Part shown: positions 1-31,633 of the stretch, in pieces | How positions within the stretch are numbered: position 1 is the first letter of the stretch | Layout of the letters: every line of letters begins with the position of its first letter | DNA from: an uncultured Gemmatimonadales bacterium | Lineage (GTDB): Bacteria; Gemmatimonadota; Gemmatimonadetes; Gemmatimonadales; GWC2-71-9 | Assembly (NCBI GenBank): GCA_963828735.1 | Contig: CAWHFW010000005.1 | Span: 2,016,001 to 2,080,000 of the forward strand | DNA length: 64,000 bases | Reading direction: 5' to 3' | The notes under the pieces: model-generated | What the model saw: the letters and a program-made list of their open reading frames with translations, nothing else | What the model was told of the DNA's origin: nothing | The model's database searches: none | Made by a program: the position numbers and the translations under genes

Positions 1-2488
<2,488 letters not shown>

Positions 2489-4046: not shown

Positions 4047-6779
4047 CTACTGCGCGGCCAGCTTCTCGAACCGCGGATTCTTCCGCACCGGATCGAACGT
4101 GGGATCGATCCGGAGCCAGCCCGGCGTCAGGTGATACGGAATCCTGAGCAGCGGCTCGAGCTGATCGAGCGCCTTCTCCGGCTCCCCCACGAGCAGGTAG
4201 ATCCGGACCAGCTGCAGCTGAATGTACGGGCCGCCGAAGCCGTCCTTCGAGACCGGATTCAGCTCCACACCCCTGAGGCCCTCGCGGATGGCCTCGTCCT
4301 TCCGGCCGAGATAGGCGAGCACGATACCATGGAGTGAGTGGAGCTGCGCGTTGTCCGGCGTCGCCCGCAGCAGCGCCTCGAAGTCGATGCGCGCCGAGTC
4401 GGCGTACGCGCGGGCGCGAGACTGGTCCCCGCGGGCCGCGTAGACTTCGGCCAGCACGATCGCCCAGCTGGACCGACTGTTGTCGAACGCCCCGGGCGTG
4501 AGCCGGAGCAGGAGCTGCTGCTGATCGTCGTCCAGGATCCAGTACAGGTCGTCGTAGTTGGCGAAGAAGGCGACCAGCGACGCGGGCTCCACGACGCGCG
4601 GTACCGCGTGCATGACCCGCTGCGCGCCCGCGAGGTCTCCCTGCTGCAGGTAGATCTGCATCTTGCCCATCACCACGACCAGGTTGGACGGAGCCAACGC
4701 GAGCCCCCGGTCCGCCATGGCCAGGGCCTCGGGGTAGCGCCGCCGCCAGGCCAGCACCCGGGCCAGGCGCCGCGTCGTCGGCACTGAGCCTGGGTCCAGG
4801 GCCCGGGCTCGTTGGTAGTGCTCCTCGGCCGCGTCCCACCGGCCCAAGCGCTCCTCGACGAAGGCCTCCGCCGCGAGCAGGTCGGCGTTGTTCGGGGTGA
4901 CGCGTTGTCCCTGGGTGTATTGGTCCAGGGCGCGGGCGAAGTCGACGGCCGCGGTCTCATAGTACTTGCCCATGGCCAGGTGGGCCTCGGGACTCTGGGG
5001 CGCGAGCGCAACGACCCGCTGCGCGCCGGCCAGCGCCGCTTGGCCGTTCTCCGGCGTCGGCTCTCCCAGGACGTAGAGAAGGGAGTGTGCCTGGGAGAGC
5101 CGGGCCCACGCGAGCGCGAAGGTGGAGTCGAGCGCCACCGCCTGCTCGTAGTAGCCGAGCGCCCGGCGTAGCAGGACCGGGTCGATGACCGCGAGGCCGT
5201 TGGAGATCTCCTCCGCTTTCAGGTAGGCGTCGTAGGCCGCGAGATTCCTGGTCGGCTTCTCCTCGAGCGCCTTGCGCTCGCCCGAGCCGAGCGTCGCGCC
5301 GAGCGCCTGCGCCACCCGCGTGGCGACATCGGCCTGGACCTGGAACACGTCGGTCATCGAGGCGTCGAACGGCTCCTGCCAGCGGGTCCGCGGAGCGCTG
5401 CCCGACGAGACTTCGACCAGCTCGGGGCTCACCTGCACCCGGTTGGCGCCGCCCGCCCCCTTCTCCCATCGCACGGTGCCGGTCAGCAGGTAGCGTGCGC
5501 CCAGCTCGCGGGCGATCTGCTGCGGCGACTTGTCGGCCTTCTTGTACGGCACCGAGCTGCTGCGGGCGATCACCTGCACGCTGGGGATCGCGGCGAGCTT
5601 CCCCCGCACGGCGTCCGTCACCCCATCGGCGAAGTACTCGTCCTCGCTGGGACCCAGGTTCTCGAACGGGAGCACCGCGAGCACGGTCGAGCCGCCGGCC
5701 CCCGCGGCGGTCTCACCGCCGGAGTGCCGCCAGGCGAAGAGGATTCCGACACCGATGAGCAGCCCGACCACCAGCGCGGCGGCCGTGGCGGGGAATCGGC
5801 GGGTTCGTGCCGGGGGCACGACCGGAGCAGGGAAGGGGGCATCGGCGCGCGCCTCGGCGGGCGCAGGCGGAGCGACCGCGACAGTGGCCCCCGACGTCGT
5901 TCCGGTCGGCGCGGCCTGCAGCGCCTGGGCGAACTGGGCAGCGGTGGCAAACCGGTCCGCCGCGATCGGCGCCAGCGCGCGCCGAATCGCCTGGTCCACC
6001 GGCTCCGGCACGTTGGGCCGCACCGACCGCACGCTCGGCGGCGGCTCGGTCAGGCGCTTCACGATCATCGCCTGCGCCGTGGCGCCGGTGAACGGCGCCT
6101 CGCCGGCCAGCATCTCGTACAGCACCGCGCCCAGACTGTAGATGTCGGTGCGGACGTCGAGGCCCTTGTCCCCACTCGCCTGCTCCGGGCTCATGTAGGC
6201 CGGCGTGCCCACCACGAGGCCCGTCTCGGTGAGCCGCGCCTCGTCCTTCCCAGCCTCGAGCGCCCGCGCGATCCCGAAGTCGGCCACCAGGGTGTTGCCG
6301 TCCCGGGTGAGGAGGAGATTCTCCGGCTTGACGTCCCGATGAATCACACCAGCCTCGTGCGCGTACTGCAGCGCCTGCGCCGCCTCGCGCGCGATGCGCA
6401 AGGCGTCCTCCACCGGCAGTTGCCGCTCGCGCATGAGCCGGGCGCGGAGCGACTCGCCGTCCACATACGGCATGGTGAACCACAGCCGGGATCCACCCGC
6501 TTCCCGGGTACCCGCCTCGGCCGTCGTGGTCTGCCCCGAGTCCAGCACGGTCAGGATGTGGGGATGCTGCAGCCGGGCGGCCAGCCGGATCTCGCGCTGG
6601 AAGCGCTCCGGGCCGAGCACCTGGCCCAGCTCGGCATGGAGCACCTTGAGGGCGACGGGACGGTCGTGCTTGAGGTCGCGGGCGAGATAGACCGTGGCCA
6701 TGCCGCCGCGGCCGAGCTCGCGCTCGAGCACGTAGCTGGGGGCCAAGGATGCCTGGAGCTGCTCCCGCAAGTCGCTCAT
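4047..6779 (-). CDS. Ser/Thr protein kinase - TM - TolB_N-like - TPR receptor
   Basis: Intact Hanks motifs, TM, LAVLPFENLG, TPR repeats, C-terminal DPTFDPVRKNPRF. Start taken at MSDLREQ. Confidence 0.93.
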   Translation of the reverse strand: MSDLREQLQASLAPSYVLERELGRGGMATVYLARDLKHDRPVALKVLHAELGQVLGPERFQREIRLAARLQHPHILTVLDSGQTTTAEAGTREAGGSRLWFTMPYVDGESLRARLMRERQLPVEDALRIAREAAQALQYAHEAGVIHRDVKPENLLLTRDGNTLVADFGIARALEAGKDEARLTETGLVVGTPAYMSPEQASGDKGLDVRTDIYSLGAVLYEMLAGEAPFTGATAQAMIVKRLTEPPPSVRSVRPNVPEPVDQAIRRALAPIAADRFATAAQFAQALQAAPTGTTSGATVAVAPPAPAEARADAPFPAPVVPPARTRRFPATAAALVVGLLIGVGILFAWRHSGGETAAGAGGSTVLAVLPFENLGPSEDEYFADGVTDAVRGKLAAIPSVQVIARSSSVPYKKADKSPQQIARELGARYLLTGTVRWEKGAGGANRVQVSPELVEVSSGSAPRTRWQEPFDASMTDVFQVQADVATRVAQALGATLGSGERKALEEKPTRNLAAYDAYLKAEEISNGLAVIDPVLLRRALGYYEQAVALDSTFALAWARLSQAHSLLYVLGEPTPENGQAALAGAQRVVALAPQSPEAHLAMGKYYETAAVDFARALDQYTQGQRVTPNNADLLAAEAFVEERLGRWDAAEEHYQRARALDPGSVPTTRRLARVLAWRRRYPEALAMADRGLALAPSNLVVVMGKMQIYLQQGDLAGAQRVMHAVPRVVEPASLVAFFANYDDLYWILDDDQQQLLLRLTPGAFDNSRSSWAIVLAEVYAARGDQSRARAYADSARIDFEALLRATPDNAQLHSLHGIVLAYLGRKDEAIREGLRGVELNPVSKDGFGGPYIQLQLVRIYLLVGEPEKALDQLEPLLRIPYHLTPGWLRIDPTFDPVRKNPRFEKLAAQ

Positions 6780-6985
6780 CGGTGGGGTTGGTGTGGGGGG
6801 ATTGCCGTGCCACGCCAATAGTAGAGGAATGCGGCGGGTGGGGGAAGGTGATCGCGCGGTGGAACCCTCTCGCGGGTGTGAGGTTAGTCGCCGGCACCCG
6901 CACTCGGCGGTTCGACCCCGACGGAATGGCGGCCGCAAACGCCGGTTGCCATCGAGGTCGCGCCGCCCCGGAGCAAGGCGCCTGG

Positions 6986-8185
6986 TCACGGATGGCAGAC
7001 GATGTCCTGATCGTACTGGGTGATGTCGCCCGGGCCGACCTTGAGCCGCACCGTCTTCCGACCCCGGCCCGCCACGTTCTCCGGCAGCTCGTGCTGCATC
7101 GCGATGCCCTCTACCTGCCCGCCACCGTCGTCGTACCGGGTGATCTGGTGATCCGCGACCTCCGCCTCGTAGGGCTCGCCGGCAGGCGCACCGGTGGCCG
7201 GATCCACTGGCGTCAGGCGGAGGCGGCCCGAGGCGTGGAACTCACTCACGAGTGCGCCCGACGGATTCACCCGCACCTCCTTGCGCAGCTCGACCGGCCC
7301 CTGCGCGTGCAAATACTCATCGGCGCTCGCCGTGCAGAAAGGCCTGGGAATGATCTGGTCGAAGTTGATCACGAACTGCTGCGTCGTCCCGACTGCCGCT
7401 GGCGCGCTCCCGCCCAGGGCAAACCGGGTGGCCCGTCCGTCCGTGGCGATGCCGACCGGCCCGCTCACCTGGCCCGCGGGGCCGCCGATGAGGGCGCGCA
7501 GCTCCGGCGGCAGCAGGTTGTAGATGGTCGGGGGGATCTCGCGGAACGTGGGTGCTCCGTTGATCTGTGCTGTCGGTGCGGGCGCCGCCGCCAAGAGCCC
7601 GCTCCTCGCCAGGTCCGCCGTCACCAGTTGCTCCGCCAGCTCCCAGCTCAGCACCTGATGGTCCGTGGTGCCGGGAATGAGCAGCTCGAAGTGCGCGTTG
7701 CCGAGCGTGAGCGGGCCCGCCTGAAACAGGCGAACGTGGAAGCGCACGGGACCGAACACGCCGCACGCCAGCTGCACGGCGCTCCCGACCCAGCCGCGTT
7801 CGGCGCCATAGCCGGTCTGGAGATCACCGATCGCGTCAGTCCAGGTACAGGTGAACGGCGCGACCGACGGGAAGCCGAACGCGGTCCGGTCACCCGATAG
7901 CGCGAGGAGTGCGGCGCGGATGGCGCGAGGATCCGCCCGACCGCTGAAGACGAGGTTGATCGGATCCTGCGGTGTGCCCGAGAAATCGGCTCCGGTGTAG
8001 GGCCAGATCGCGAGGGAGCCCGGGTCGGCTGGAAGCGAGACCAGTGTAAGCGGTGGCGCCGCCTGCGCGCCTAGGGACGGACCGGCCGGGTCGGCAGGAG
8101 GCGTGTCGCGATCGCAGGCCGCGAGGGCGCACGAGAGCAGGAGTGCGGCGGCGACACGGCCGCGGAAGAACTGTGAAGGCTGCAT
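6986..8185 (-). CDS. Hypothetical lipoprotein
   Basis: Lipobox LAAC after a hydrophobic stretch; long ORF with typical codon usage; contains DPINLVF and FHVRLF motifs. Confidence 0.75.
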   Translation of the reverse strand: MQPSQFFRGRVAAALLLSCALAACDRDTPPADPAGPSLGAQAAPPLTLVSLPADPGSLAIWPYTGADFSGTPQDPINLVFSGRADPRAIRAALLALSGDRTAFGFPSVAPFTCTWTDAIGDLQTGYGAERGWVGSAVQLACGVFGPVRFHVRLFQAGPLTLGNAHFELLIPGTTDHQVLSWELAEQLVTADLARSGLLAAAPAPTAQINGAPTFREIPPTIYNLLPPELRALIGGPAGQVSGPVGIATDGRATRFALGGSAPAAVGTTQQFVINFDQIIPRPFCTASADEYLHAQGPVELRKEVRVNPSGALVSEFHASGRLRLTPVDPATGAPAGEPYEAEVADHQITRYDDGGGQVEGIAMQHELPENVAGRGRKTVRLKVGPGDITQYDQDIVCHP

Positions 8186-8228: not shown

Positions 8229-8260
8229 ATCCTGGCTTCCGCGGTCAAGCGATGGTCAAG
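8229..8260 (-). promoter_or_regulatory. 11-bp-period direct repeat plus -10-like hexamer (candidate BTAD/SARP site)
   Basis: Minus strand CTTGACC-ATCG-CTTGACC-GCGGAAGC-CAGGAT upstream of the lipoprotein gene. Confidence 0.55.
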
Positions 8261-8400
8261 TCAGGGGATCAGGAGGAACCGGCAGGCCCTGACGGTCGCG
8301 GGACGAGCGCCAGGCGAATCGCGCGGGCAGGCTGCCCGCTCGGACATGGGGCTTGTCCGGGAGTAGGCGCGAAGGTTGTAACGGAGGGCTCGAGCGGCGG

Positions 8401-10299
8401 TCAGGTATCCTCGTCGGCCGCCTCGAGCAGGCGCCGGCGTTGTCCCGGGGTGAGCATGTCCCGTTCGACCACCTGCTGGACGATGCGGGCCACGAACCCG
8501 TATCCGCGCGGCTCGGAGACGAGCCAGTGATGCCACTCGGCCTCGTCGAGCGCGCGGTGCACCGCATCGAGCGGCTCGCCAAGCGCCCTGGCGATACGGG
8601 TGGCGGCCACGCGGTCGCCCAGCACGGATGCCGCGGCGAGGACCCGCTGGGCCTCCGGTGAGCGCCGGCGGAACCCGATACGGATCGCTGCGACGACCGC
8701 GTCGGGCAGATCGCCGGGCAGGCTCTGATCGAGCGTGCGCTGCGGGTCGGGCCACGCACTCGACGTCGCCCCGAGGTCCAGCCCGAGGGCCACGGCCCGG
8801 AGCAGCTCGACGGCGATGAGCGGCAGGCAACCCGAATCAAGGGCCACCCGTCGGACGACGCGATCCAGCTGGACCGAGTCATACCCGGGCAACAGGCGCT
8901 CGGCGAGCTCGCGGAGCGCCGTCGTCGTGAACGGCGCCGTGTGGATGGCCGCACCGCCCAGGTCGCGGCCGATGCGGCTCCTGAGATCATCCAGGTCAGG
9001 TCTCGGCACGTGGTGAGAGAGCGTCAGCACCACGATCACAGGCGCCGCGGTCAGGTCGCGCAGCAGCGCCACGAGCGAGGCGGCAGAGTCGTCGTCGAGC
9101 CACTGGGCGTCGTCGACCGCGAGCACCACCGGCTGCTCCGCCGCGGCAGTCCGCGTCACCTCGGCGAGCGCTCGTCCCAGAGAGCACGGCGCCGCCGCCA
9201 CGGAGGAAAAGCGCTCGGCCCACTCCGGAAGCGCGGCCGCCAGGGCCGCGATGGCGTCGGGCGTCGCACCGGCGATCCCCGCGGCGTCCCGCAGCCCTCC
9301 GCGAGCGAGCACCAGCAGGCCGCTCCATGGCTGGGTTCGATCACCCTCGACGGCGCGCGCCGCCGAGACCGCCGCGCCGTCGAGACGCAGGCGGGCGAGC
9401 AGCTCGTCGGCGAGCCGCGTCTTTCCCGAGCCGATCTCGCCTTCGATGAAAAGCACCGCGGCGCGGCGCGTGGTGACCGAGGTGGCTGCGGCATCGAGCA
9501 GCCGCTGCAACTCCGTCGCGCGACCGGCGAGGGGCAGCCGGTCGAGCACGCCGGGCGCCTCGGCGAGGGGACCCGGTTCGGGACGCACCAGGTGCTGCTT
9601 CGCCACACGTTCGGCGAGATCGTCGGTGGCGCGTTCCGGGATGACATCGAGCTCCGCCAGGAGCGCGACGAACCGGGAGTGCTCCTCGAGCGCGGCAACG
9701 CGATCGCCGGCGAGCGCCAGGCTCCGCATGACCGCGCGCACGGCGCGCTCGGCGCGAGGGTCGAGCCGCAGGGCACGGCGCGCGGCCCACGCAGCCTCGG
9801 CGGCCTGGCCCGACCGGAGCAGGCTCTCCGCGTACTGGACCAGCACGTCCACCGAGCGCCCCCGCCAGTGGGTGCGCTCGGCGCCGAGCCAGTCCTCGAA
9901 CGCCGACGCGTCGTCGAGGCCGAAACCCTCGAGGAATTCTCCGGTCACCAGCGCGGCCGCGGCGCTCCAGTCCTCTCGGGCGGCTAGCGCCTCGAACTCG
10001 TCCAGGTCGAGACGGACGGCGTCGGGGCTCAGGCGCAGGAGCCCGCCCTCGCCGCCGATCGCCTCATTTCCCAGATGCCGGCGGATGTGCCCCAGCGCGA
10101 CGTTGAGCGAGTGCCTTGCTCTCGCTTCCTCGCTCTCCGCCCACAGCAGGCCGATGAGGTGCTCGCGCGTCCTGCCGCGGCGACCGGAGCGCGCCAGATA
10201 CACCAGGAGCGCCAGATGCTTCTTCCAGAGCAGCTCGGGCGGCGCCATCGCGCCGTCGAGGGTGAGCTCGACCGGGCCCAGTGTTCGGCAGCTCGTCAT
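8401..10299 (-). CDS. SARP/AfsR-like regulator: OmpR-type wHTH + BTAD + AAA (STAND-like) ATPase
   Basis: LALLVYLA...TREHLIGLLW wHTH; FEDWLGAER BTAD; Walker A GEIGSGKT; Walker B VLAVDDAQW. ATGA overlap with the upstream gene. Confidence 0.9.
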   Translation of the reverse strand: MTSCRTLGPVELTLDGAMAPPELLWKKHLALLVYLARSGRRGRTREHLIGLLWAESEEARARHSLNVALGHIRRHLGNEAIGGEGGLLRLSPDAVRLDLDEFEALAAREDWSAAAALVTGEFLEGFGLDDASAFEDWLGAERTHWRGRSVDVLVQYAESLLRSGQAAEAAWAARRALRLDPRAERAVRAVMRSLALAGDRVAALEEHSRFVALLAELDVIPERATDDLAERVAKQHLVRPEPGPLAEAPGVLDRLPLAGRATELQRLLDAAATSVTTRRAAVLFIEGEIGSGKTRLADELLARLRLDGAAVSAARAVEGDRTQPWSGLLVLARGGLRDAAGIAGATPDAIAALAAALPEWAERFSSVAAAPCSLGRALAEVTRTAAAEQPVVLAVDDAQWLDDDSAASLVALLRDLTAAPVIVVLTLSHHVPRPDLDDLRSRIGRDLGGAAIHTAPFTTTALRELAERLLPGYDSVQLDRVVRRVALDSGCLPLIAVELLRAVALGLDLGATSSAWPDPQRTLDQSLPGDLPDAVVAAIRIGFRRRSPEAQRVLAAASVLGDRVAATRIARALGEPLDAVHRALDEAEWHHWLVSEPRGYGFVARIVQQVVERDMLTPGQRRRLLEAADEDT

Positions 10300-13076
10300 G
10301 CCGCGCAGGCCCGGCCACCCGCGCGCGCCACGGCCGCGGCCTGCAGTGGCCGCATGTCGGCCTCGCTCCCGCTCCAGAGCTCGACCACTCTGCGGAGCGT
10401 GGCGCACCCGGCGACGGTGTCGGCGGCCGTCGCGCCGGATGTCAGGAGGGCCTCGCCACGCCGCCAGCGCACGTACGTGCCGAGTGCCGCGTCGATCTCG
10501 CCGGCTTGAGGCGCGCCCACGGGCCAGCCCTCGAAGTCCGATCCGTCGATCCAGCGCAGGTCCCGCTCGGCGGCGGCGACGTTGCCCCGCGCCATGTGCC
10601 AATCGGCGCGGAGCAGATGGTAGACCGCCCCGGCGAACGGATCGGGAGGCTGGTTCACGCTCACCGCGCCGCGAACCGAGTCCGAGACGTCGAGCGCCCG
10701 CGAGAGGTCACCACCCTTGCCGGCGATGACGGCGCGGAGCAGCACACCGAGCGGGGAGCCGGGCGCCAACTGCTCGAGCCGAGTCGCCTGGCCACGTGCG
10801 GCAGCCGTGTCGCCGGAGGCGACGTGTCCCAGCGCGAGGGCCCACCGGATCCGCGTCTCCAGGCGGGCGGTGGTCGTGTCCGCCAGCATCTGCTCCAGCG
10901 GCTCGCGCCAGCGAGGTGCGGACGCCGGAATGACGGAGAGCCCGACCAGCCGCGGGATGACCTCCCATTCGGCCCGCTGAAGGCGGACCTCGGGGGAGGG
11001 CCAGTCGGCGATGGACGAATCGAGCTGCGCGAGCGCCTCGGATGTCCGGCCCAGGGCCAGCAGCCCGATGGCAATGCCGTTCCGTGCGCTCGCGCGCGCC
11101 GAGTCGGTCGACGACTCACGATCGAGGAGGATGCGGCAGAGACCGATCTGAGCTCCGGGAATGTCGAACCAGGGAGCGCCGAGCCGTGCGACCTGCGACA
11201 CGCCGGCGAGCGTCGCGGAGTCGCCCGTGCGCTCGAGCCACCAGCGCGCGAGTCGGCCGCGCCACGGGCGGAAGCGCTCGTCATAGGCCAGCTTCATGAG
11301 CCGCACCTTGTCGAGGTCGCCCGGCCATGACTTGACCTCGATGGCTTGCCGGAGAGCGAGCGTGTACTGGGCGTGCTCTTTCCTCCCGGCGCGAAGATCC
11401 GCGGCGAAGATGTGGTTGTAAGGGTCGGCGAACGAGGAATCGAGCGCGATCGTCTCGCGCATGCCGCGAATGGCGAGCTCGATGTCCCGCCCGACCAGCG
11501 GTCCGCGGTGGAAGAGCTCGTGCGCGTAGAGATACTGCAGGTAGGCGTCGGGCCGTGCGTGCGACACCACCGAGTCGAGCCGCCGGAGCCGGCGGTCGAC
11601 GTCGGGCTCGAGGAACGCCTTCACGACCGCGCGGTCGGTCGGCCGAAGGCGATCCCCGAGGCGCCCGTCCAGCTCGCGCAGGTCCCCGAGATAGTCGTAG
11701 GGGCGCCGCTCCCAGTGCCTGACGTTGGCCAACCGCCAGCGTGCCAGCGCAAACGTGGAGTCGGCATCGATCGCGGCCTCGTACCGCTGCTCGGCGAGCG
11801 TCCACTCGTCCCGGTCGTACGCCGCCTCGCCCTGGAGAAAGCTCTTCAACGCCTCGAACGGCACGCCGGCGAAGTCCCGCAGCTCCCCGACTCGGGGCTC
11901 GAGCTCGGGCGCCACGATGTTGAGCACCGGCAACGACAGTCGCTCGGTGAGCCCGACGAGGTCGGCCACCGTGCCGGTCACCTCGACGTACTCCTTGGCG
12001 CCGCGCCAGGAGTAGAGGGTGAGGCCCACCCGCACGCGATCGCCCGACCGCCTCGCCTGCCCGTGCGCCACCCACTGCACGCCGAGGTCACGCGGGGCCT
12101 GATTCTGAATTCCGCCCGCGTCGTAGCCGGTCTGCGCCGCCCATCGCGCGATCCGGCGCGGCGACGTCATGTGGAGCCCCGAAACGTCACTCAAGGTCAG
12201 GGACAGCAGGTGGGCCATCGCGGTCCCGAGCGAATCTCCGGCCGGGCCTCCGATCGCTTCGAGCGGGAGCACGGCGATCTCGTTCGACGGCGGCCCGGGT
12301 GGCCGGCGCAGCCAGTGCCAGGCGGCCGCGCCCGTGAGGGTCAGTACCGTGAGGGCCAACAGCGCGAGCCCCGCCACCCTGATGGGCCCGCTCGCCAGGG
12401 TGAGCCTCCGGCGGAACGAGGCCGCGTGGGGGTCAGGCGCGAGCGCACATCGGAGGGCCGGCCGCAGGCGGAGCGGGACCGCCGCGAGCGCCTCGCGGCT
12501 CGTGCCTGCAGCCTCCCACCGTCGGCCCGTCACCGCCTGGTAGATGACGCGCGAGACCAGCACGAGTCCGGTGCGCTCGGTGCTCGAATCGGCTGGAGCG
12601 GCGCCAATGCCGTCGAGCACCAGGCGCCCGGGTTGTCGTACCACCGTGTCTGGCGACAGTTGGGGATGCGCGACGCCCCGCGCGCGCGACGCCTCGAGCG
12701 CCGCAAGCAGCTCGAGGCCGTAGCGTATGGCCTCACCTACAGGTACGGGCCCACTTGCCAGATGCTCGGCGAGCGGCTCCCCCGGCACGTGCTCCAGCGC
12801 GGCGTACGCGAAATCTCCGAAGGCGTCGGCCCGGTGGACTGAGCGGACGCCGGGATGACCGACGCGAGCGAGCAGGCGGATGCTCGCCACGAACGCCTCC
12901 GCGCGCGCCGTGGTGCGCTGGTCGGGAGCGAGCATCACCAGCAGGACCGCCCGGTCGAGCCGGAGATCCTGCGCCAGGACGCGCACGAGCCCGTCCTCCT
13001 CGCCGAGCACGCGCTCCAGCCGATATTCCCGGGCCAGGCCCGTGCGATCCCACGCCAGATGTTCGATGTCGATCAT
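10296..13076 (-). CDS. Receptor pseudokinase - TM - TolB_N-like - TPR
   Basis: Kinase-like N-terminus with catalytic motifs lost ([23 protein letters not shown]). Ectodomain paralogous to 13073-15913. Confidence 0.85.
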
Positions 13077-15913
13077 CGCCGGCACCAGTCCGCCACGGCG
13101 TGCAGCCGTGCGGTCGCGGGGAAGAATCCCGGCTCGGCATGCGACCACGCCTCCTCGAGACGCGTCGCATGGTCACACGCGGCCTCGCGCCGGTTTTCCC
13201 GCCGATCGAGCTCGGCTCGAAGCAGCCGCGCGTACGACCCGAGCGCCCAGTCGACGTCAGCCGGCTGCGCCTCCGCGCTGGGCCAGCCCACCGCGTCCGT
13301 ATTCTCGTACCAGAGCCAGCTGCGGTCGGCCTCGTCGGCTCGGCCGTTCAGGCCGCGCCACCACTGACCGCGCAGCAGGTGCAGCGTCGCACGAAAGAAC
13401 GGATCCGGCGCCGCGCCGGCCGAATCCACCGCGAGCGCCGGTGCCGAGAGGTGGAGGGCGGCAGGCGAATCCCCCTGAGCCGCGGCGCTCATCGCGGCGA
13501 GCAGCAGCCCGAGCGGGCCATCCTCGGGCTCCCGCTCGGTTACGACAGCCCGCCAGCTGTCTGCCTCGACCGCGTCGCCCCGGGCCAATGCATCCACGCC
13601 AAGCGCCCAGGCCGCGCGGGCGGTGGTGTCATGGTCGTTGAGCGTGACGAGCGCGCGCCGGCCTTCCTCGCGCTCGGCATCGGTGATCCCCGGTACGCCA
13701 AGCGCGGGCAGGAGCACCCTCCACTCGGCTGCCTGCTGGTGGGCCTCGCCGGGCTCGGGGAACAGGCCGGCGGCCGAATCGAGCTGCGCGAGCGCCCCGT
13801 GCGGCCGGCCCAGCGCTACCAGGGCGACTCCCTGCGCGAGATGCCCGCTCGCCCGGTCGATCGCGGTGGCCTCGTCGGGCGCCGTGAGCCGCCGGCCGAA
13901 TTCGAGCTCGAACGCCGGGAGGTCGAAGGCGAGCGCGCCGCGCGCGGCGAGCGAAAGCGCTTTGGGCGACGCGAGCAGCCCGCCAGCCGCGGGATCGAGC
14001 TTCCCGGGGCTGAAGCGCGCGGTCGAGGCGAGCCTCAGGAACTCCGGCAGGAAGATCTCGGACTCCTCGGGGCGGCCCGCCGTGCGCTCGAGCGAGTCGA
14101 GCGCCCGGGACGCTTCCTCCTTCCGACCGAGGCGAATGAGGGCCCAGGTAAGGTGCTCCCACGCCGGCGCCAGGCGCGGATTGGCCGCCGCGGCGCGCGC
14201 GAGCATGCGTGCGGCCTCCTCGAGCGGCCGGCCCGCGAGCGGGCCCCGGTGAAACAGCTCGTCACCGTAGAGCAGCATCGCCGTGGCGTTGGCGGTGTCC
14301 GAGGCGAGCGCGGACTCGTACGCGGCGAAGCGAGCGCCGCCGGACGGCGCGAATTGCGCGGCGATCAACAGGCTGTCGGTCCGCGGCAGGTCCCTGCCGT
14401 GCTGCGCGAACAGGTCGCGAAAGTTGTCGGGGAAGGGCGGCGTCGGACGGAGGGGCATCCAGCGCCGCGCGTTGCCCAGCCTCCAGGCGGCGAGCAGGAA
14501 CGTGGAGTCGATCGCCAGGGCATTGGCGTAATGGCGCTCGGCCGCGAGCCATGCGTCGTGCTCTACCGCCTCCTCGCCCTTCATGTACTCGAGGACCGCC
14601 GCACGGGAGAGCCGAATGCCCCCTCCGGGCATGAGCGGACCCAATCCCCTGCCCATGGTCGCGACGAGCAGTCCGCCCAGCGAATCGACGAGTGCGAAAT
14701 GGTCCCCCGAATCGCCGACGACGGCGGTGTCGAGCAAGGGCTTGCCGAGAGAATTCACCAGCGAGCCATGGATCTCGAGGCGCCCAGCGCTCCGCGTCAC
14801 GAAGCCGGAGACGCCAAAGGTGGCGCCCAACTCCGGTGTGAGGGTCCGAGATCGCATGGCCGTGGGCTCCCTCGATGCCCGCCAGGCCGTCGCGACCTCG
14901 GTGCTTGGCGGCATCCGGATCCCTGGAAGCGGCTCGAAGTACGACCGGGTTGCTCGGGTCAGCTCTCCGGCGAGACTCGTATCTCCGAGGGTCTCGTACG
15001 GGAAGACGACGACATCATACGCCGTGACCCGGCCCCACTTGTGGAGGTACACGGCCGCCACGACAACCAGCAGGGCGACCACGAGCAGCGACGGGAGCCC
15101 GAGAGGCGCTTGCCAGGTCGATGAGGGGCGTTCGAGCGAGACCAGGAATTCCTGGCCCGTGGACCACCGTTCCGCCGGATGGCTCCGAAGGGCCTTGGTC
15201 AGTGCCGCGCGGAGATGGCGAGTCACGCCCGGCCACTCCGCCTGCTCGACGCCGTGCAGCCGATCCCAGGGGTGACCGGTGGATGCCTCGTACAGGACCG
15301 CGCCAAGGGAGTAGAGGTCCGACAGCTTCGTGGCCTCCCGACCGGCTGCCTGCTCGGGGGCCATGTAGCGCGGTGTTCCCGGCAGCTCGTTCGGAGTGGT
15401 GAGCGTGTCATCAACGCTGTGGGGGACCGCCACGATCCCGAAGTCGCCGAGCAGGGCGCTGCCGTGCTCGAGAAAGATGTTGGACGGCTTGATATCCCGG
15501 TGGATGAAGCCCTGAGGATGCATCGCGCCGAGCGCCGACAGGACGTCCCGTGCGACGGCGATGGTCTCGGCCTCGGGGAGCCGACCATCGCGAAGGCGAT
15601 CCGCCAGCGTCCCCCCGTTCATCAGCGCCATGACGTAGTACGGGATGCCGTCCGCCACGTCGGCTTCGTAGACGGGGACGATGTTCGGATGGGTGAACCG
15701 CGCGGTGGTGCGCGCCTCCCGCAGGAATCGCTCGGCGAGGACGGCGGTCGCGCGCTCCGGCGGGAGGATCTTGATGGCCACCGGACGCTCGAGCACCGCG
15801 TCCCACCCCACGAAGACGATACCCATGCCGCCGGCGGCGAGCTCGCGCTCGACGACGATCCGCGGGGCAAGCGCGGCACGAAGGCGATGAAGGACCGACG
15901 GCGGTTGGCCCAT
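13073..15913 (-). CDS. Ser/Thr receptor kinase - TM - TolB_N-like - TPR
   Basis: [48 protein letters not shown]. Confidence 0.92.
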
Positions 15914-15986
15914 GAGCCCGGGAGTTGTCGAGTGGATTCCCCAATACTGCGTGTCGCCAGGCGTCCCGGCAACCGCGGCGACCCGC

Positions 15987-16018
15987 TTGAGGCCCAATTG
16001 ACCGCCGGGCGGCAGCTT
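15987..16018 (+). promoter_or_regulatory. TTGA-N7-TTGA direct repeat plus -10-like hexamer
   Basis: TTGAGGCCCAA-TTGACCGCCGGGCGG-CAGCTT upstream of 16045. Confidence 0.5.
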
Positions 16019-16044: not shown

Positions 16045-16431
16045 ATGTCGGTTCGCGCCCTACGTCGGCCCTGCCCACGCCGGGCTGCCACCCTCGTCCT
16101 CGTCCTGCTGGGCGCCTGCACCAGCTGGCGGGTGCAGCCCGTCGCCCCCGTGGAGCTGCTCGGCCAGTCCACGCCGTCCGAGGCGCGAGTGCGGCTCCAC
16201 GACGGCCGGAAGGTGATCGTCCGCCAGCCGCGGCTCCGCTCCGACTCCGTGGTGAGCGGGTTTCCGGGCGACAGCTCCGCGCTGGCCGTCGCCGGGATCG
16301 ACAGCATCGAGCTCAGAAAGGGTGACGCGGCGAAGTCGATCGGGCTCGTGCTGCTCATCGTCGGCACGCCAGCCATTCTCTGTGCCGCCACGTGCGAGTT
16401 CGGCCCCGACTTCTCCGCGCCCATCGAGTGA
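16045..16431 (+). CDS. Hypothetical lipoprotein with C-terminal hydrophobic segment
   Basis: GGAG RBS; lipobox LGAC; C-terminal TM-like stretch. Confidence 0.7.
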
Positions 16432-16439
16432 GTCGGCTC

Positions 16440-16471
16440 TTGAGTCATCCTTGACTGCTGCATGGCATCGT
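16440..16471 (+). promoter_or_regulatory. TTGA-N7-TTGA direct repeat plus -10-like hexamer
   Basis: TTGAGTCATCC-TTGACTGCTGCATGG-CATCGT upstream of 16513. Confidence 0.5.
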
Positions 16472-16512: not shown

Positions 16513-17160
16513 ATGTCACGCACACCCCGAGTTCTTCGAACCGTCAGTCTCGGACCGAACCTCACCGGCCAGGGACATCCAAACCTGCGGATCCTGCTCG
16601 GCAGTCTGTGCCTGTTGGCTGTCACGCTCGGATCGCCACCCGCCGCGGCAGGCCAGACCTGCTTCCGTGGCCGACCGGAGCCAAGGTGCAGCGGCTTCAC
16701 GGTGTTGGAGTTCACAACCGCCATCCGCCTCAATCAAAAGCCCGCCCCGACGGACGAGGGCATGGTGTTGGGCTACTGGAGTGGCGGCTATCTGAGGAAC
16801 ATCGGCCAGCGATCCGCGTTGGGAGCGGCGTTCAAGCTCACGGGCGACACCGACGGCTACCGGTACGGGCCGGTGCTACGGTACCGTCGCTGGCTCAGTC
16901 CTACCTCCAGCATCGACTTCTCCCCGGGGCTCTTCGTGGCGGGGAAAGACAACTTCACCGCCTTGCGGTTCCCGAGTCCCACGGCCGACGTCGCCTTGAA
17001 TTATCGCGACTGGGTGGGGCTCGCTCTCGGCGTCGATGCGCTTCGGCAGGCTGACGGAGGTACCCATTGGCAGTGGCACGCGGGGATGCGGCTCGGCACG
17101 TGGCTCGCACCCCTCGCCACGCTCGGGCTCTTCGTCCTGGCGGCGGCAACGTACGACTAG
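16513..17160 (+). CDS. Hypothetical exported protein (beta-strand rich, possible small outer-membrane barrel)
   Basis: GGAGGAG RBS; signal peptide ending AAAGQ; amphipathic beta pattern; N-terminal Cys pair. Confidence 0.7.
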   Translation: MSRTPRVLRTVSLGPNLTGQGHPNLRILLGSLCLLAVTLGSPPAAAGQTCFRGRPEPRCSGFTVLEFTTAIRLNQKPAPTDEGMVLGYWSGGYLRNIGQRSALGAAFKLTGDTDGYRYGPVLRYRRWLSPTSSIDFSPGLFVAGKDNFTALRFPSPTADVALNYRDWVGLALGVDALRQADGGTHWQWHAGMRLGTWLAPLATLGLFVLAAATYD

Positions 17161-17254: not shown

Positions 17255-17286
17255 TTGACGGCGCCTTGAGCGGACATGCACACCGT
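17255..17286 (+). promoter_or_regulatory. TTGA-N7-TTGA direct repeat plus -10-like hexamer
   Basis: TTGACGGCGCC-TTGAGCGGACATGCA-CACCGT upstream of 17343. Confidence 0.5.
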
Positions 17287-17342: not shown

Positions 17343-17765
17343 ATGCGTCGGCTCGCACTCGTTCTTGCTGGCCTCAGCTTCACTACCGGCTGTGTTCACA
17401 CGGGCGCTACGATGCTGAACGCGTCGGCGAAGCTTCCACCGATCTGCCCCGAGGGAGTTCAGTTGTTTACGGGCGCCGAAAAAGTCGGCCAGCAGTATCA
17501 CGAAATTGCCGTCCTCACCTCCAACGGGGACGCCGACATGACCTCCGCGGAGGGCATGGCCAACTCACAGCGGAAGAAGGCGGCAAAGCTCGGAGCCAAC
17601 GGCGTCATCCTGGGGGAGCAGAAGGATCCGAGCACCGGCGCGAGGATCGCCGATGCCTTCCTGGGCACGGGCGCCGTGCGGAAGGGCAAGTCAATAGCCA
17701 TTTACATCCCGGCTGACAGCTCTCGCGTCCAGGAAGCCTGCGGGGCGAAGGTTGCGAGGCGGTAG
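17343..17765 (+). CDS. Hypothetical lipoprotein (YbjQ-like fold possible)
   Basis: AGGAGG RBS; lipobox-like TTGC; RKKAAKLGANGVIL motif. Confidence 0.75.
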   Translation: MRRLALVLAGLSFTTGCVHTGATMLNASAKLPPICPEGVQLFTGAEKVGQQYHEIAVLTSNGDADMTSAEGMANSQRKKAAKLGANGVILGEQKDPSTGARIADAFLGTGAVRKGKSIAIYIPADSSRVQEACGAKVARR

Positions 17766-26314: not shown

Positions 26315-28680
26315 GTGTCCGGGACAGACGCGCTCCCCTACCTAGGCGACCGGTACGCGCTCTTGAGCCGCATCGGAGCCGGTGGAATGGGCTGCGTCTA
26401 CCTCGCCCAGGACACCAAGCACGAGCGTCGCGTGGCGGTGAAGGTCCTCGATCCGGTGTATGGCCGTGCGGTGGGCACTCAGCGCTTCGTCCGGGAAATC
26501 CGCATTGCGGCGATGCTCACCCATCCCAACATCGTTCCGCTCTACGATTCGGGTGAGTTCGAGGGCCAGCTCTTCTACGTGATGCCCCATATCGATGGAC
26601 AGAGCCTCAGGGATCGGTTGAAGCGCGACCTGATGCTCCCTCTTGGGCAGACCCTTCAATGGGCGGCGGAGATCGCGGATGCACTCGCCTTCGCCCATAC
26701 CCATGGAATCGTCCACCGCGACATCAAGCCGGAAAACCTCCTCATTCAAGGTGACCGCCTGGTCCTCGCGGACTTCGGAGTGGCTCGCGCCATCGACCTG
26801 GCCGCGGACGAAGACATCACGAGCGAGCAACTGGTCGTCGGCACTCCGCTCTACATGAGCCCCGAACAGGCAAGCGGATCGAGAGTAGATGGTCGCAGCG
26901 ACATCTATTCCCTTGGATGTGTCATTTACGAAATGCTGGTCGGTGAGCCACCGTTCACCGGCGCGACGCCGCAGGCGGTGACCGCCAAGAAGGCCTCGGG
27001 TCGTTACCCTGCAATGCGCGTCGTCCGTCCCACTGTGCCGCCCACGGTGGACGATACGGTGGCCCGCGCACTCGCGAGCATTCCGGCCGACCGGTTTGAG
27101 ACGGCGCAGGAGTTCGCGGCCGCACTCCGGGCTGGCGTGACCTCGCGCGGGAGGATGCGTTTCCTTCCTCTAGGACTGCTGGGGATGGTGGCAGTCGCCG
27201 CCGTCTTGGCCGCTCTCCATCCTTGGAAGCGCGAGCCGCCAAGCGCGAAACGTCAGCGAATCGTGGTAGGAGTGTTCGCCAATCGAACCGGGGACACGCG
27301 CAACGACGCTCTCGGAATCATGGCCGCTGACTGGGTCACCGAAGGGTTGCAACGGACTGGCGCCGTCGACGTCGTGCCAACGCTTACCGCACTCACCGCA
27401 GACCGCTTCCTTCGCTCTACGTCTGACAGCGCTGACCCGGTGCGAACCATGGCCCGCGAAACCGGCGCCAATCTGGTGGTCGGGCACGACTCGCCCTGAG
27501 CCCGACGCCCGGCAGACGGAGCGCCCGCCGACTTACGTCTGCCTATCAGGCTTCGTCAGCGAAGCGCTGGTGCCATGCGGGAGGAAGCTGCGAATCGTCA
27601 GCTCGCGCATCGCCGCCACCGCGTGCGCGATCTCAGGGGACTCGAGCTTTGTGCGGCGCTCTAGCCTCCTTCTGCCTGACCAACCACGAAATCCAGGCGG
27701 ACTCGGTACTCCGCATTGTCGCCGTTGCGGCGCGAGCGCGCTGAGCGACTACGGATCGCTACTGGCTTGACTACGAACGCGCCGAGCTCGCGGGAAACGA
27801 TGTCGACGCGCTTAAGGCAATCCGCCGTGCCGCCGAGCTGGCTCCCGCCTCGAAGGCCTCGTACAATTTCGCCGTCGTGGCCTTCGAAAGTCGGCAACCG
27901 TTCTCGGCCGAGAGTGCTCTTGGACGACTGTCCCCCGACATCGGATCGATGAGGGGCTGGCAACCCTACTGGGATGTGCTGGCGAGCGCACTGCATGCCC
28001 AGAGAAAGTACCGGCAGGAGGCGAGGACAGGTCGGGAGGCGCGGCGCCGGTTTCCGGGGCGAGTTGATGCGTACATGTCGGAGGCACGCGCCTACGCAGC
28101 TGAACACGACGCCGCGGAGCTCGAGCAACTGTGGAATGCCGTTGCGACCGTGCGTGATGCTAAGCCGGCGGAAGTCGGCACCCTCGCCCTCCAGATAGGA
28201 GATGAGCTCAGAGCGCACGGAGACTCGGGCGCATCGCACCAGTGGTTCGACCGTGCCTACAGAGCCGCGTCGCCGGATGAAGCCGCCGCTCGCTGGGTGA
28301 AGGCAAGGGCCGCAGCGCGCCTTGGCCGCTTGAGAGAGGCCGTAGGACTCGGCAAGTCCCTTGTCGGGGATGACCCGGCACAACGGGATTACTATCTCGG
28401 TTTCGTCGGCATCGTGTCCGCCCAGCTTGGAGATAGCGCCAGTGCACAGGAACTCTCGCGGCGGCTCGCGGACGATCAGCGCCCTTTCACCTTCGGAGAG
28501 CCGCAAGTCCAGGCGGCCCGGATTGCAGCCGTCCTTGGCGACACCTCGCAAGTCGCAAGGCTCCTGGAATCGGCTTATCGCAAGGGTTATCCATACGATC
28601 TAGAGTTTCATCGAGATCAGGCGCTCGCCAGCGTGCGGAGCCTGACGGCTGTGCGACAGCTCGACGTTCCCCTGGAATAG
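26315..28680 (+). pseudogene. Ser/Thr kinase - TM - TolB_N - TPR gene disrupted at ~27480-27810
   Basis: Intact kinase to 27499. A TPR tail (AIRRAAELAP...FHRDQALASVR) resumes downstream. The middle shows a deletion and several frame breaks, from decay or sequencing error. Confidence 0.75.
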
Positions 28681-28951: not shown

Positions 28952-31633
28952 GTGCCGCCCGACCTCGACCGCCTCCGCGCCGGTCTCATCGACCGCTACC
29001 GTCTCGAGCGCGAGCTGGGCCAGGGCGGCATGGCCACGGTCTACCTGGCCGAGGACCTCAAGCACAGGCGCAACGTGGCCATCAAGGTGCTGCGCCCCGA
29101 GCTGGCCGCCGTCATCGGGGCCGAGCGCTTCCTGCGTGAGATCCAGACCATCGCGACGCTGCAGCACCCGCACATCCTCGGCCTGATCGACAGCGGCGAG
29201 GTGAACGGCACCGCGTACTACGTCATGCCGTTCGTCGACGGCGAGTCGCTGCGTGACCGGTTGCGCCGGGAGAAGCAGCTGCCGGTGGGTGACGCGGTGC
29301 GCCTGGCCACCGAGGTAGCCGCCGCCCTCGACTACGCCCACCGGCATGGGGTCATCCACCGCGACATCAAGCCCGAGAACATCCTCCTGCACGACGGTGG
29401 CGCGCTGGTGGCCGACTTCGGCATCGCGTTGGCCGTCTCCAGCGCGGGTGGCGGCGACCGCATGACCGAGACCGGCATGTCGCTCGGCACGCCGTACTAC
29501 ATGTCGCCCGAGCAGGCCATGGGCGAGCGCGCCATCACGGCCCGCTCCGACGTGTACGCCCTCGGCGCCGTCACCTACGAGATGCTGGTCGGCGAGCCGC
29601 CGTTCACGGGGCCCACGGCGCAGGCCATCGTGGCCAAGGTGATGAGCGCCGACCCCGCCGGCCTGTCGGCCCAGCGCCGGAGCGTGCCGCCTGCCGTCGA
29701 GGACGCGGTCCTCACCGCGCTGTCCAAGCTGCCCGCCGACCGCTTCGCCAGCGCCGCCGAGTTCGCCGCCGCCCTCAAGGGCGACGCCGCGAGAACCGTC
29801 ACCGTCCGCCGTCCCGCGGCCACCGGCGCGCGGGCCCGCCCCTGGCTCGTGCCGATGCTCGGCGCCGTCGCCGCCCTCGCGGTGGCGGCGGCTGTCGTGC
29901 TGGGGCTCCGGCTGGCCCGCCGCCCCAGCGCGCCGGTCGCCCGCTTCTCGCTCGATATCCCCGACCTGCGGGTCAACTTCACCGGCTTCTACGGCATCTC
30001 CCTCGCGATCGCGCGCGACGGATCCCGCATGGCGTTCGTCACCCGGGCCGGGGAGACTGTCACCCGGCTCGCGGTGCGAGATCGCGGCGACCTCGAGGCC
30101 CGGCTGCTGCCCGGCACCGAGGGGGGCGACGCTCCGTTCTTCTCGCCCGACGGCCGGTGGCTCGGCTTCTTCGCGGGTGGCAAGCTGTACAAGGTGGCGG
30201 TCGCCGGCGGCACGCCGGTGCTGGTGGCCGACAATGCCCAGTTCGCGCTGCCGAGCGCCCTCTGGCTCGCCGACGGCCGGATCGTGTACGCCGGGGCGGA
30301 CTTCAAGATGATGGCGGTCGACGCGGACGGCGGGAACCCGGTGACGCTGGTCCCGGCCCCCAAGTCGGGCGCGCTGCGCTATCCGGCCGCCCTGCTGGAC
30401 GATCGAGTGCTGATCCTGACCCGGTGCGGCAACACCTGCGCCGGGCCGGCGCTCGTCGCGATCGACGTGCGGACGCAGGCCGAGGATACCATCCTCGTCG
30501 GCGCTACCGAGGCCGCGCTCCTGCCGGACGGCACCCTCGTCGCCGTGCGCGGCGACGGCACGGTCCTGGCCGCCCCGTTCGATGCTCGCCGGCACCGCCT
30601 CACCCGCTCGCCGACGCCGGTCCTCACCGGCGTCCAGGTCGAGATCGGGGTCATCCCCGAGTTCGCCGTCGCCGACGACGGGACCCTGGTCTATCTCCCG
30701 TCCAACGCCTTTGCCGGAGTGTCCACCGTGGCGGAGGTGGACCGCGCGGGGCACGCCCGGGTGCTCGATCCCGGGTGGGAGGCCCGCTTCATCAGCGCCG
30801 ACCTGTCGCCCGACGGAAGGCAGATCGCCGTGAGCACGCTGGAGGGTGCCGGCTCGACCCTGTGGGTCAAGCAGCTCGATGCCGGCCCGCTCACCCGGCT
30901 GACGTTCACCACTGGCGTCACCAACTACCGGGCCGCCTGGCTCCCCGACGGCCGCGCCCTGAGCTACAGCTCCGACCTGAAGGGCGGCACTCACCTGTAT
31001 CGCATCCGGGCCGACGGCAGCGACAAGGCCGAGCGCCTCTTTCCCGCCGACTCGGCCCAGATCGATGAGGCGAGCTGGTCGAGCGACGGGCGGTGGCTGG
31101 CCTACCGCACCGGCACGGTGCCGGGCCTCCGCGACGTCTATCTCCGCCGGGCCGCGGGCGACGGCCCGCCGATCCCGGTCGCCGCCGGCTCGGCCGACGA
31201 GTACATGCCGGCCGTGTCGCCCGACGGCCGCTGGGTGGCGTACGTGTCGATCGAGTCGGGGAGGGAGGAGGTGTACGTTCGTCCGGTGCTCGACGTGGAC
31301 CGCGCCCGCTGGCAGGTCTCGTCGGCCGGCGGCACCAGCCCCGTGTGGGGCTCGTCGAGCCGCGAGCTGTACTACGTCGCGCGGGGCGACACCATGGTGG
31401 CGGTCACGGTGGGCGGCACGACCGAGTTCCAGGTCACCGGACGCCAGGCGCTGTTTGGGACCGCGCCGTTTACCTTCACGCCCTGGCACCAGGGCTTCGG
31501 CGTCCGTCCCGACGGCCGGTCGTTCGTCATGCTGAGGCGCACCGACCAATCGGCCGGCCCCGAAGCGCGCCGGCTGGCGGTGGTGCTCAACTGGTTCACT
31601 GAGGTGCGGGCTCGACTCGCCAAGTCGGAATGA
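28952..31633 (+). CDS. Ser/Thr kinase - TM - TolB-like beta-propeller (PD40) receptor
   Basis: Hanks motifs; repeated SPDG motifs; C-terminal VVLNWFTE. Confidence 0.93.

Follow-up and report, generated by a model that had tools for sequence, protein, structure and literature searches.

A 64,000-nucleotide window of DNA from an uncultured Gemmatimonadales bacterium (contig CAWHFW010000005.1) carries on its minus strand a three-gene unit, the triad, which encodes an intact receptor Hanks kinase (gene 1; type A, or A), a paralogous receptor pseudokinase (gene 2; type B, or B) and a winged helix-turn-helix (wHTH)-BTAD-STAND ATPase activator (gene 3; the regulator). Judged from its own sequence and that of its relatives, the unit is a real, conserved and selected variant of the signalling between Hanks kinases and Streptomyces antibiotic regulatory proteins (SARPs), to which it adds a receptor pseudokinase, together with a candidate phospho-site and a regulon that is predicted. 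Its main features are as follows:

13073..15913, minus strand: gene 1 (A), intact receptor Hanks kinase, 946 aa (open frame, Pfam, motif set in orthologues)
10296..13076, minus strand: gene 2 (B), receptor pseudokinase, 926 aa, architecture as gene 1 (open frame, alignment to gene 1, model)
12387..13055, minus strand: pseudokinase domain of gene 2, residues 8-230 (alignment and model)
12957-12959, minus strand: Leu40 codon of gene 2, with Arg42 the sole invariant residues of the pseudokinase domain
10299..12290, minus strand: gene 2 ectodomain, TolB-N fold (~140 aa) followed by a tetratricopeptide repeat (TPR) solenoid, predicted periplasmic (model, charge bias, Cys pair)
8401..10299, minus strand: gene 3, wHTH-BTAD-STAND ATPase activator, 632 aa, no C-terminal sensor domain (open frame, Pfam)

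We postulate, with a little less than even confidence, that A and B form a heterodimeric co-receptor. Both would lie in the inner membrane with their TolB-N/TPR ectodomains outside, where a periplasmic or envelope signal would pull them together; the dead kinase domain of B would dock back-to-back on the N-lobe of A through the equivalent of PknB Leu33 and so turn A on. A would then phosphorylate the sensor-less STAND activator, most likely at a Thr motif (residues 522/526), and the activator would bind TTGA-N7-TTGA boxes over the -35 region, switching on genes for lipoproteins and other exported proteins.

Decay, selection and conservation of the pseudokinase

Gene 1 consists of a kinase domain (approximately residues 15-262), a transmembrane helix (272-290) and a TolB-N-like and TPR ectodomain ending in two C-terminal Cys. 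It matches Pfam Pkinase at E 6.5e-37, it contains GTPRYMAPE, and its complete catalytic motifs and one transmembrane helix make it a Hanks-type receptor Ser/Thr kinase. An earlier note on this DNA had credited it with all Hanks motifs, and the motif set is indeed complete, although the first glycine of the Gly loop is Ala. Gene 2 aligns with gene 1 from end to end (28% over 943 columns, E 6e-69) and shares the two C-terminal Cys, in agreement with the paralogy that the same note had proposed. Pfam returns no kinase match for gene 2; the model of its kinase domain (predicted local distance difference test, pLDDT, 91) has the kinase fold expected of a pseudokinase, matching PknB (1mru) with Z 20.1, 2.2 as root-mean-square deviation (rmsd) over 223 residues and a template modelling score of ~0.7. 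Within this fold the Gly loop, beta-3 Lys, HRD Asp, catalytic-loop Lys and Asn, DFG Asp and activation segment are all gone, as first noticed from the letters, and the alpha-C Glu and alpha-F Asp are missing as well.

A pseudokinase is defined by the absence of the beta-3 Lys, the HRD Asp or the DFG Asp (PMC12599244). Gene 2 lacks all three, and at least one is absent in 66 of its 75 full-length orthologues, whose identity ranges down to 36%: three residues are lost in 30, two in 26 and one in 10, while 9 keep Lys/Asp/Asp. Since each catalytic residue switches state at least two to four times on the tree, decay was stepwise and partly parallel. The full catalytic set (Lys, both Asp, catalytic-loop Lys and Asn, third Gly and P+1 Thr) is present in 103/105 A orthologues and in 42/43 single kinases, the relatives of like architecture described below (one cut single-kinase locus dropped), compared with 0/75 B. 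The proposal that orthologues lack intact catalytic motifs is therefore correct for the whole set, though not for Lys/Asp/Asp in the 9 proteins just mentioned.

Among the other points on which the earlier note had staked its proposal, purifying selection on the pseudokinase domain and conservation of the triad are both found. The ratio of nonsynonymous to synonymous substitution rates (dN/dS; NG86 for all pairs, beside YN00) lies around 0.2 for the B kinase domain: 0.12-0.49 across all 18 pairs, with a pooled value of 0.217 (0.17-0.25, 40 bootstraps; YN00 0.17) over 8 non-overlapping close pairs. The B ectodomain gives the same 0.217 and the active kinase a slightly lower 0.164 (6 pairs). Neutral decay is ruled out by these ratios, and a frameshift or assembly artefact by the 75 orthologues. 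Graded, ongoing decay with repeated state changes, and a B gene split into two pieces in one genome (G523), are what a decaying remnant or faulty assembly might leave behind; set against the number and divergence of full-length orthologues, low dN/dS in 18/18 pairs and a confidently modelled fold, however, that reading is refuted in substance and hardly credible. B is almost certainly a functional, selected part of the unit.

Scans with the B alignment yielded 27 genome and 18 metagenome loci, of which 32/45 carry a B-type gene. An A-type gene lies directly upstream of B at 28/28 resolvable loci (four begin inside B), and the regulator directly downstream at 30/30 (two end inside B). A survey of the genus, from which one unpublished genome was excluded, covered 102 genomes: 19 have a B-type match (G523 being the one in two pieces) and 19 an A-type match, with A followed by B in all 18 resolvable genomes. 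Outside the genus, this query found no B-type match in 300 family genomes, with three candidates scored per genome; titled relatives are Gemmatimonadota, mostly Gemmatimonadales. The triad is conserved in one Gemmatimonadales genus. The three genes are coupled by ATGA overlaps at 13073-13076 and 10296-10299, as the earlier note described. An A/G/T-TGA junction also ends 39/42 single-kinase relatives, so that the overlaps themselves are not special; the arrangement exceeds chance because gene order and motif decay recur across many relatives.

A single intact receptor kinase of like architecture is matched in 81/299 family genomes at E 1e-40. Among 45 single-type loci, taken from the best matches and long contigs, the same regulator follows the kinase at 41/42 resolvable loci, and the triad derives from this widespread kinase-plus-regulator module. 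The 21 A rows and the 31 B rows fall into one group apiece, and the internal branching of the two groups is largely mirrored. A simple sister duplication of A and B was rejected (approximately unbiased test, p 0.007 against sisterhood; LG+G4, one model, 33/95 rows), and the two are probably not sisters. The B ectodomain groups with single kinases such as the one at locus L094 (same genus), and the regulators of the triad are likewise placed with the L094 regulator; the kinase-domain tree is uninformative on the origin of B, which forms a long branch there. On these quick trees B is most simply read as the resident partner, which decayed after a more distant paralogue arrived upstream. Separate tandem receptor-kinase pairs precede the regulator at L091:5911-11845 and L101:7123-12790, with Lys/Asp/Asp intact in both copies and HCD in place of HRD in the downstream copy of L101; they are possible early stages of the same path. 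At L150 and L151 two kinase-regulator modules adjoin (one tandem, the other divergent).

In both receptors a single hydrophobic stretch follows the kinase. Lys/Arg are richer before it than after it in 79/105 A, 60/75 B and 38/42 single-kinase relatives, and two Cys fall within the last 60 residues in 103/105 A, 75/75 B and 39/42 single-kinase relatives. From this charge bias and the C-terminal Cys pair we infer a cytoplasmic kinase and a periplasmic ectodomain in both receptors. The gene 2 ectodomain is modelled with pLDDT 93.6 and matches TolB (1c5k; Z 13.7, rmsd 2.5, 128 aligned). Foldseek with the ectodomain returned generic TPR solenoids only and the ESM Atlas TPR clusters only, with no ligand clue from either. 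A CadC-like ectodomain was considered as a lead; CadC is not among the 50 structure matches listed, which excludes nothing. In one case (L051:2500-3870) the A-type gene ends just past TolB-N (~430 aa), so that its TPR part is missing, next to a B and a regulator that are both complete; this is either a natural deletion or an assembly fault.

Surfaces kept and lost by B

Leu40 and Arg42 are the sole invariant kinase-domain columns in the 75 B, and align with Leu33 and Arg35 of PknB (numbering anchored on the D76A structure entry). The host genome, from which the window comes, is rich in kinases, with 92 Hanks-type domains that span 150 columns or more, and 88 domains with intact Lys/Asp/Asp. 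In these 88 canonical kinases the Leu33-equivalent position carries His 51 times and Leu only 23 times, so that Leu is not a requirement of the fold. In PknB, Leu33 inserts into the N-lobe of the partner, and kinase-dead PknB raises the autophosphorylation of the wild-type enzyme, an effect abolished by L33D (10.64898/2026.10.08.757607, a 2026 preprint). Back-to-back contacts are likewise reported as important in vivo for StkP (PMC13434768). The suggestion that B is an 'allosteric partner or scaffold' has accordingly changed in balance: the partner half gains from the invariant Leu33 equivalent, while the scaffold half is weakened by loss of the substrate-side surface.

The conservation data speak for an A-B partnership but not for its sign. 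B could instead be an inhibitory partner or decoy, binding A or its ligand and keeping A off until the signal arrives, with the rest of the pathway unchanged. The alpha-C Glu is retained in fewer than half of the B orthologues, so that an active-like N-lobe is not required, and inhibitory pseudokinases such as IRAK3 are described in animals. The bacterial experiment points the other way, since the dead, Leu33-bearing PknB protomer activates, and A is never alone in the 18 resolvable genomes, as would be expected no less if A depended on B; we consider inhibition unlikely.

The substrate side of B is eroding, which speaks more for B as a partner of A than for B as a docking site of the regulator. 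The activation-segment Glu column is gapped in 55/75 B, and the segment is gone in most. In these receptors a short two-Trp segment replaces the alpha-G region (alphaF-alphaH), which is ~16 residues shorter than in PknB; this segment is without any Trp in 27/75 B versus 0/105 A and 0/43 single kinases. No Ser/Thr column reaches 75% in the cytoplasmic domain of the 75 B, which rules out a phospho-dock of the MviN kind on B. Thus a B that scaffolds or sequesters the regulator, presenting the STAND protein to A or freeing it on signal, appears quite unlikely, the more so as one regulator copy is found beside a kinase-Ig protein that is unrelated, and so has no need of B. In its favour, the gene adjoining the regulator is always B, and the grouping of the B ectodomain and triad regulators with single-kinase modules of the same kin implies that B may be the regulator's original partner.

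Finally, B might work solely through its ectodomain, by capturing a ligand or supplying a second input, or might work as a homodimer, its kinase-like domain being a folded anchor that makes no contact with the A kinase. Most residues retained in the B kinase domain are also retained in A and single kinases, as a structural core would be; at L051 it is A that lacks the TPR part while B is whole, and the MviN pseudokinase homodimerises back-to-back (PMC12599244). Yet a Leu and an Arg on the surface are more strictly conserved than every residue of the core, the kinase domain evolves at the same dN/dS as the ectodomain, and the domain was shed in 0/75 aligned full-length B, in a search blind to much shorter forms. 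We regard this explanation as distinctly improbable.

The regulator and a predicted box and regulon

Gene 3 matches BTAD (E 3.5e-12), AAA_16 (E 3.9e-20) and, below cut-off, Trans_reg_C (E 4e-5). The closest natural solved relatives of its profile are EmbR (best, E 2.9e-12) and AfsR (E 4e-8), and the order of wHTH then BTAD, with these matches, agrees with the SARP-like assignment made earlier. Walker A GxGKT and DD are near-invariant in 60 sequences, as in the STAND ATPase of large SARPs. Apart from one read-through frame, 65/67 collected regulators are 606-657 aa long and end after the ATPase module; the AfsR-type C-terminal TPR sensor domain is absent in those collected. They carry the following motif:

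8704..8754, minus strand: WPxPxxTLxx[TS]LP motif of the regulator (Thr522, Ser/Thr526), candidate phospho-acceptor (column conservation)

Ser/Thr occupies both motif columns in 65/65 regulator sequences, and among host-genome open reading frames (ORFs) the motif occurs only in the two regulators of this subfamily. It may be a phospho-acceptor that stands in for the sensor domain. The regulator is present in 74/111 family genomes (unpublished genomes removed here and in the box counts), 0/53 genomes of family f2 and 0/37 of f7. A kinase gene lies within ~2 kb upstream in 33/40 regulators, drawn from 38 loci chosen among regulator-match genomes, and none in 7/40; regulators at L135, L137, L152, L153, L156, L163 and L164 carry the Thr motif with no kinase gene detected in the available upstream DNA. 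The second subfamily regulator of the host genome (L001:5877-11166) is 60% identical and comes after another kinase, one with a zinc ribbon, a kinase domain and Big_2 repeats, with a box on the opposite strand upstream. As it nests among the triad regulators, the activator was re-wired there to another receptor.

The DNA flanking the operon in relatives contains TTGA-N7-TTGA followed 10-12 nt on by YANNNT. The boxes of the window and their predicted targets are:

8229..8259, minus strand: TTGA-N7-TTGA box with CAGGAT (-10-like) after a gap of 10 nt, ahead of the lipoprotein gene that lies downstream (sequence pattern)
15987..16018, plus strand: TTGA-N7-TTGA-N11-YANNNT box before the divergent lipoprotein gene (sequence pattern)
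16440..16471, plus strand: TTGA-N7-TTGA-N11-YANNNT box (sequence pattern)
17255..17286, plus strand: TTGA-N7-TTGA-N11-YANNNT box (sequence pattern)
6986..8185, minus strand: predicted target, lipoprotein-like, 399 aa, no Pfam family
16045..16431, plus strand: predicted target, lipoprotein-like, 128 aa, no Pfam family
16513..17160, plus strand: predicted target, 215 aa, signal-peptide-like N-terminus (by eye), no Pfam family
17343..17765, plus strand: predicted target, lipoprotein-like, 140 aa, weak DUF4156 match below cut-off

All four TTGA-N7-TTGA copies of the window lie between 8.2 and 17.3 kb, flanking the operon (Poisson p 5e-7, for an interval picked after seeing the copies). Within 400 nt downstream of the regulator the repeat is found at 14/25 triad and 7/40 single loci, compared with 0-1 at other spacings. 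The host genome has 31 TTGA-N7-TTGA against 6-14 at other non-codon spacings, and 11 with YANNNT at 11 nt against 0-2 at other distances. By crude gene calls, the box precedes 9/220 lipoprotein-like ORFs versus 6/5513 others, and none at four control spacings. The full pattern occurs in 110/111 family genomes, compared with 31/111 at a control spacing; in family f2, which has no regulator match, it is found in 16/53 versus 15/53. SARP/AfsR-type promoters carry 11-bp direct repeats over the -35 region, 8 nt upstream of the -10 (PMC10972967, PMC11301090), and the geometry of the box, as a sequence pattern, fits them. A plain sigma-70 -35 element was considered and rejected, as neither TTGA stands 17 nt from the -10. 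On this sequence evidence the unit probably switches on surface lipoprotein genes.

A degenerate box overlaps the stop codon of the regulator in the window (8387-8404, minus strand), and a perfect box begins at the regulator stop codon in 8/25 triad loci, several of them before a hydrolase-like exported protein (by eye). Upstream of gene 1 (window 15930-15975, minus strand), relatives have in common a sigma-70-like element, TTGCCG/TTGCAC, that precedes an AT-rich hexamer by ~17 nt (by eye), which suggests that the operon is not box-driven. Two RNA runs, apparently one data set, contained 6% of the sequence words, and their aligned contigs were only short and scattered.

Several observations weigh against the co-receptor pathway as we have drawn it. 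First, Leu at the Leu33 equivalent is near-invariant in A and single kinases too, so that Leu40 of B could serve B-B homodimers or an inhibitory contact; MviN uses the same back-to-back surface to homodimerise (PMC12599244), and the position of PknB Asp76 is variable among these receptors, so that the interface is not identical to that of PknB. Second, single-kinase modules manage without any pseudokinase at 41/42 resolvable loci, and the 9 B proteins with Lys/Asp/Asp may still have some activity. Third, regulators that lack a neighbouring kinase carry the Thr motif too, and it may for that reason be structural or served in trans. Lastly, the box occurs in 36/37 family genomes without a regulator match (mean 3.8 sites, against 6.4 in the 74 genomes with a match; kin not independent) and in 15/16 genomes of family f6, where the regulator is found in 2/16; in the host genome the second regulator could account for some box sites. 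A search for the wHTH domain only did not explain the boxes of genomes without the regulator, and other wHTH-BTAD proteins probably read the same box. We put the activating co-receptor forward tentatively, at just short of an even chance.

Comparison with known kinase systems and implications

The nearest precedents for the pairing of kinase and regulator are actinobacterial. In Streptomyces coelicolor AfsK phosphorylates AfsR, which binds direct repeats 8 nt upstream of the -10 and over the -35 (PMC10972967, PMC11301090); this too is a Hanks kinase with a wHTH-BTAD-STAND activator. AfsR, however, has 993 aa with a C-terminal TPR, whereas the present regulator ends after the ATPase module and has its own Thr motif; the phylum, box sequence and predicted targets differ, and the available accounts of AfsK-AfsR describe no paralogous pseudokinase. 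In Mycobacterium tuberculosis the receptor kinase PknH phosphorylates EmbR, a SARP activator of envelope genes (PMC4601284) and the best natural structure match of our regulator. Unlike it, EmbR docks through FHA and has no STAND module, and the dead partner in that system is the substrate mimic EmbR2 rather than a receptor. Here a kinase-SARP pairing is suggested by gene linkage and the conserved Thr motif.

For the kinase domains the closest comparison is the PknB back-to-back dimer, with which they share the fold and the Leu33 equivalent through which a kinase-dead protomer activates. PknB is a homodimer whose dead protomer was engineered, whereas the dead protomer proposed here would occur naturally, as a receptor with a gene of its own; the Asp76 position and the shortened alpha-G region also set these receptors apart. 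MviN (ActPs3) and EssB/YukC resemble B in being membrane-bound, with three catalytic motifs lost and a shortened activation loop, and MviN retains the back-to-back interface (PMC12599244). They differ in being flippase-fused or part of a secretion machine and homodimeric, and neither has an active receptor paralogue and a transcription factor encoded next to it. That 2025 review distinguishes seven pseudokinase-rich bacterial families (ActPs1-3, GLW, CP1, DYD and DLHK) and, in the sections available, lists no pair of active and dead receptors. Compared by description only, gene 2 has no GLW or DYD motif, and its transmembrane plus TolB-N/TPR layout is not among the architectures described there. 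The main text of a kinase atlas preprint (10.1101/2025.01.12.632604), as far as available, contains neither 'Gemmatimonad', 'TolB' nor 'heterodimer', although its supplements may list these proteins. We found no account of this arrangement in the literature searched, which leaves most subscription papers outside its coverage.

Four further Hanks kinase genes lie in the first half of the window (926-2488, 4047-6989, 26315-27499 and 28952-31633), one with TPR and one with PD40 repeats. Elsewhere in the genome, G000:C5:2145186-2146679 and G000:C5:1982640-1988129 encode kinase-like domains without HRD and DFG; the latter is fused to an ATPase-like region and resembles the CP1 family as described in PMC12599244.

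In eukaryotes, the receptors HER2 and HER3 form a pair of an active and a dead receptor kinase. Available descriptions of plant CORYNE present a similar pair. Their ectodomains are unrelated to those of A and B and their origin is separate, so that the analogy is one of logic, with the pairing here a proposed one; still, the triad suggests a bacterial counterpart of these active-plus-dead receptor pairs.

The known roles of bacterial pseudokinases, as scaffolds, parts of secretion machines and repurposed enzymes, include no active/dead receptor pair in the reviewed material (PMC12599244). Our most far-reaching proposal, which we hold as doubtful, is that a paralogue of foreign origin became established upstream of a kinase-regulator pair already in place and assumed the catalytic task, with the resident B remaining as the obligate allosteric co-receptor of a natural receptor kinase/pseudokinase heterodimer, with orthologues graded from nearly intact to fully dead. 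The same proposal includes an undescribed, two-component-like class of Gemmatimonadales systems, in which a receptor Ser/Thr kinase would replace the sensor domain of a STAND activator through a conserved Thr loop and control a lipoprotein regulon through TTGA-N7-TTGA boxes. If the co-receptor model is true, the unit would realise in nature what the experiment with engineered, kinase-dead PknB set up, and would parallel HER-type receptor pairs in a bacterium. Because the orthologues form a graded series, the transition from enzyme to allosteric pseudoenzyme is directly testable with soluble domains. The unit also offers a candidate control route for a STAND protein that has no sensor domain and, for a kinase-rich and mostly uncultured lineage, a map from input to output that comprises a receptor, a candidate phospho-site, a DNA box and a target class.

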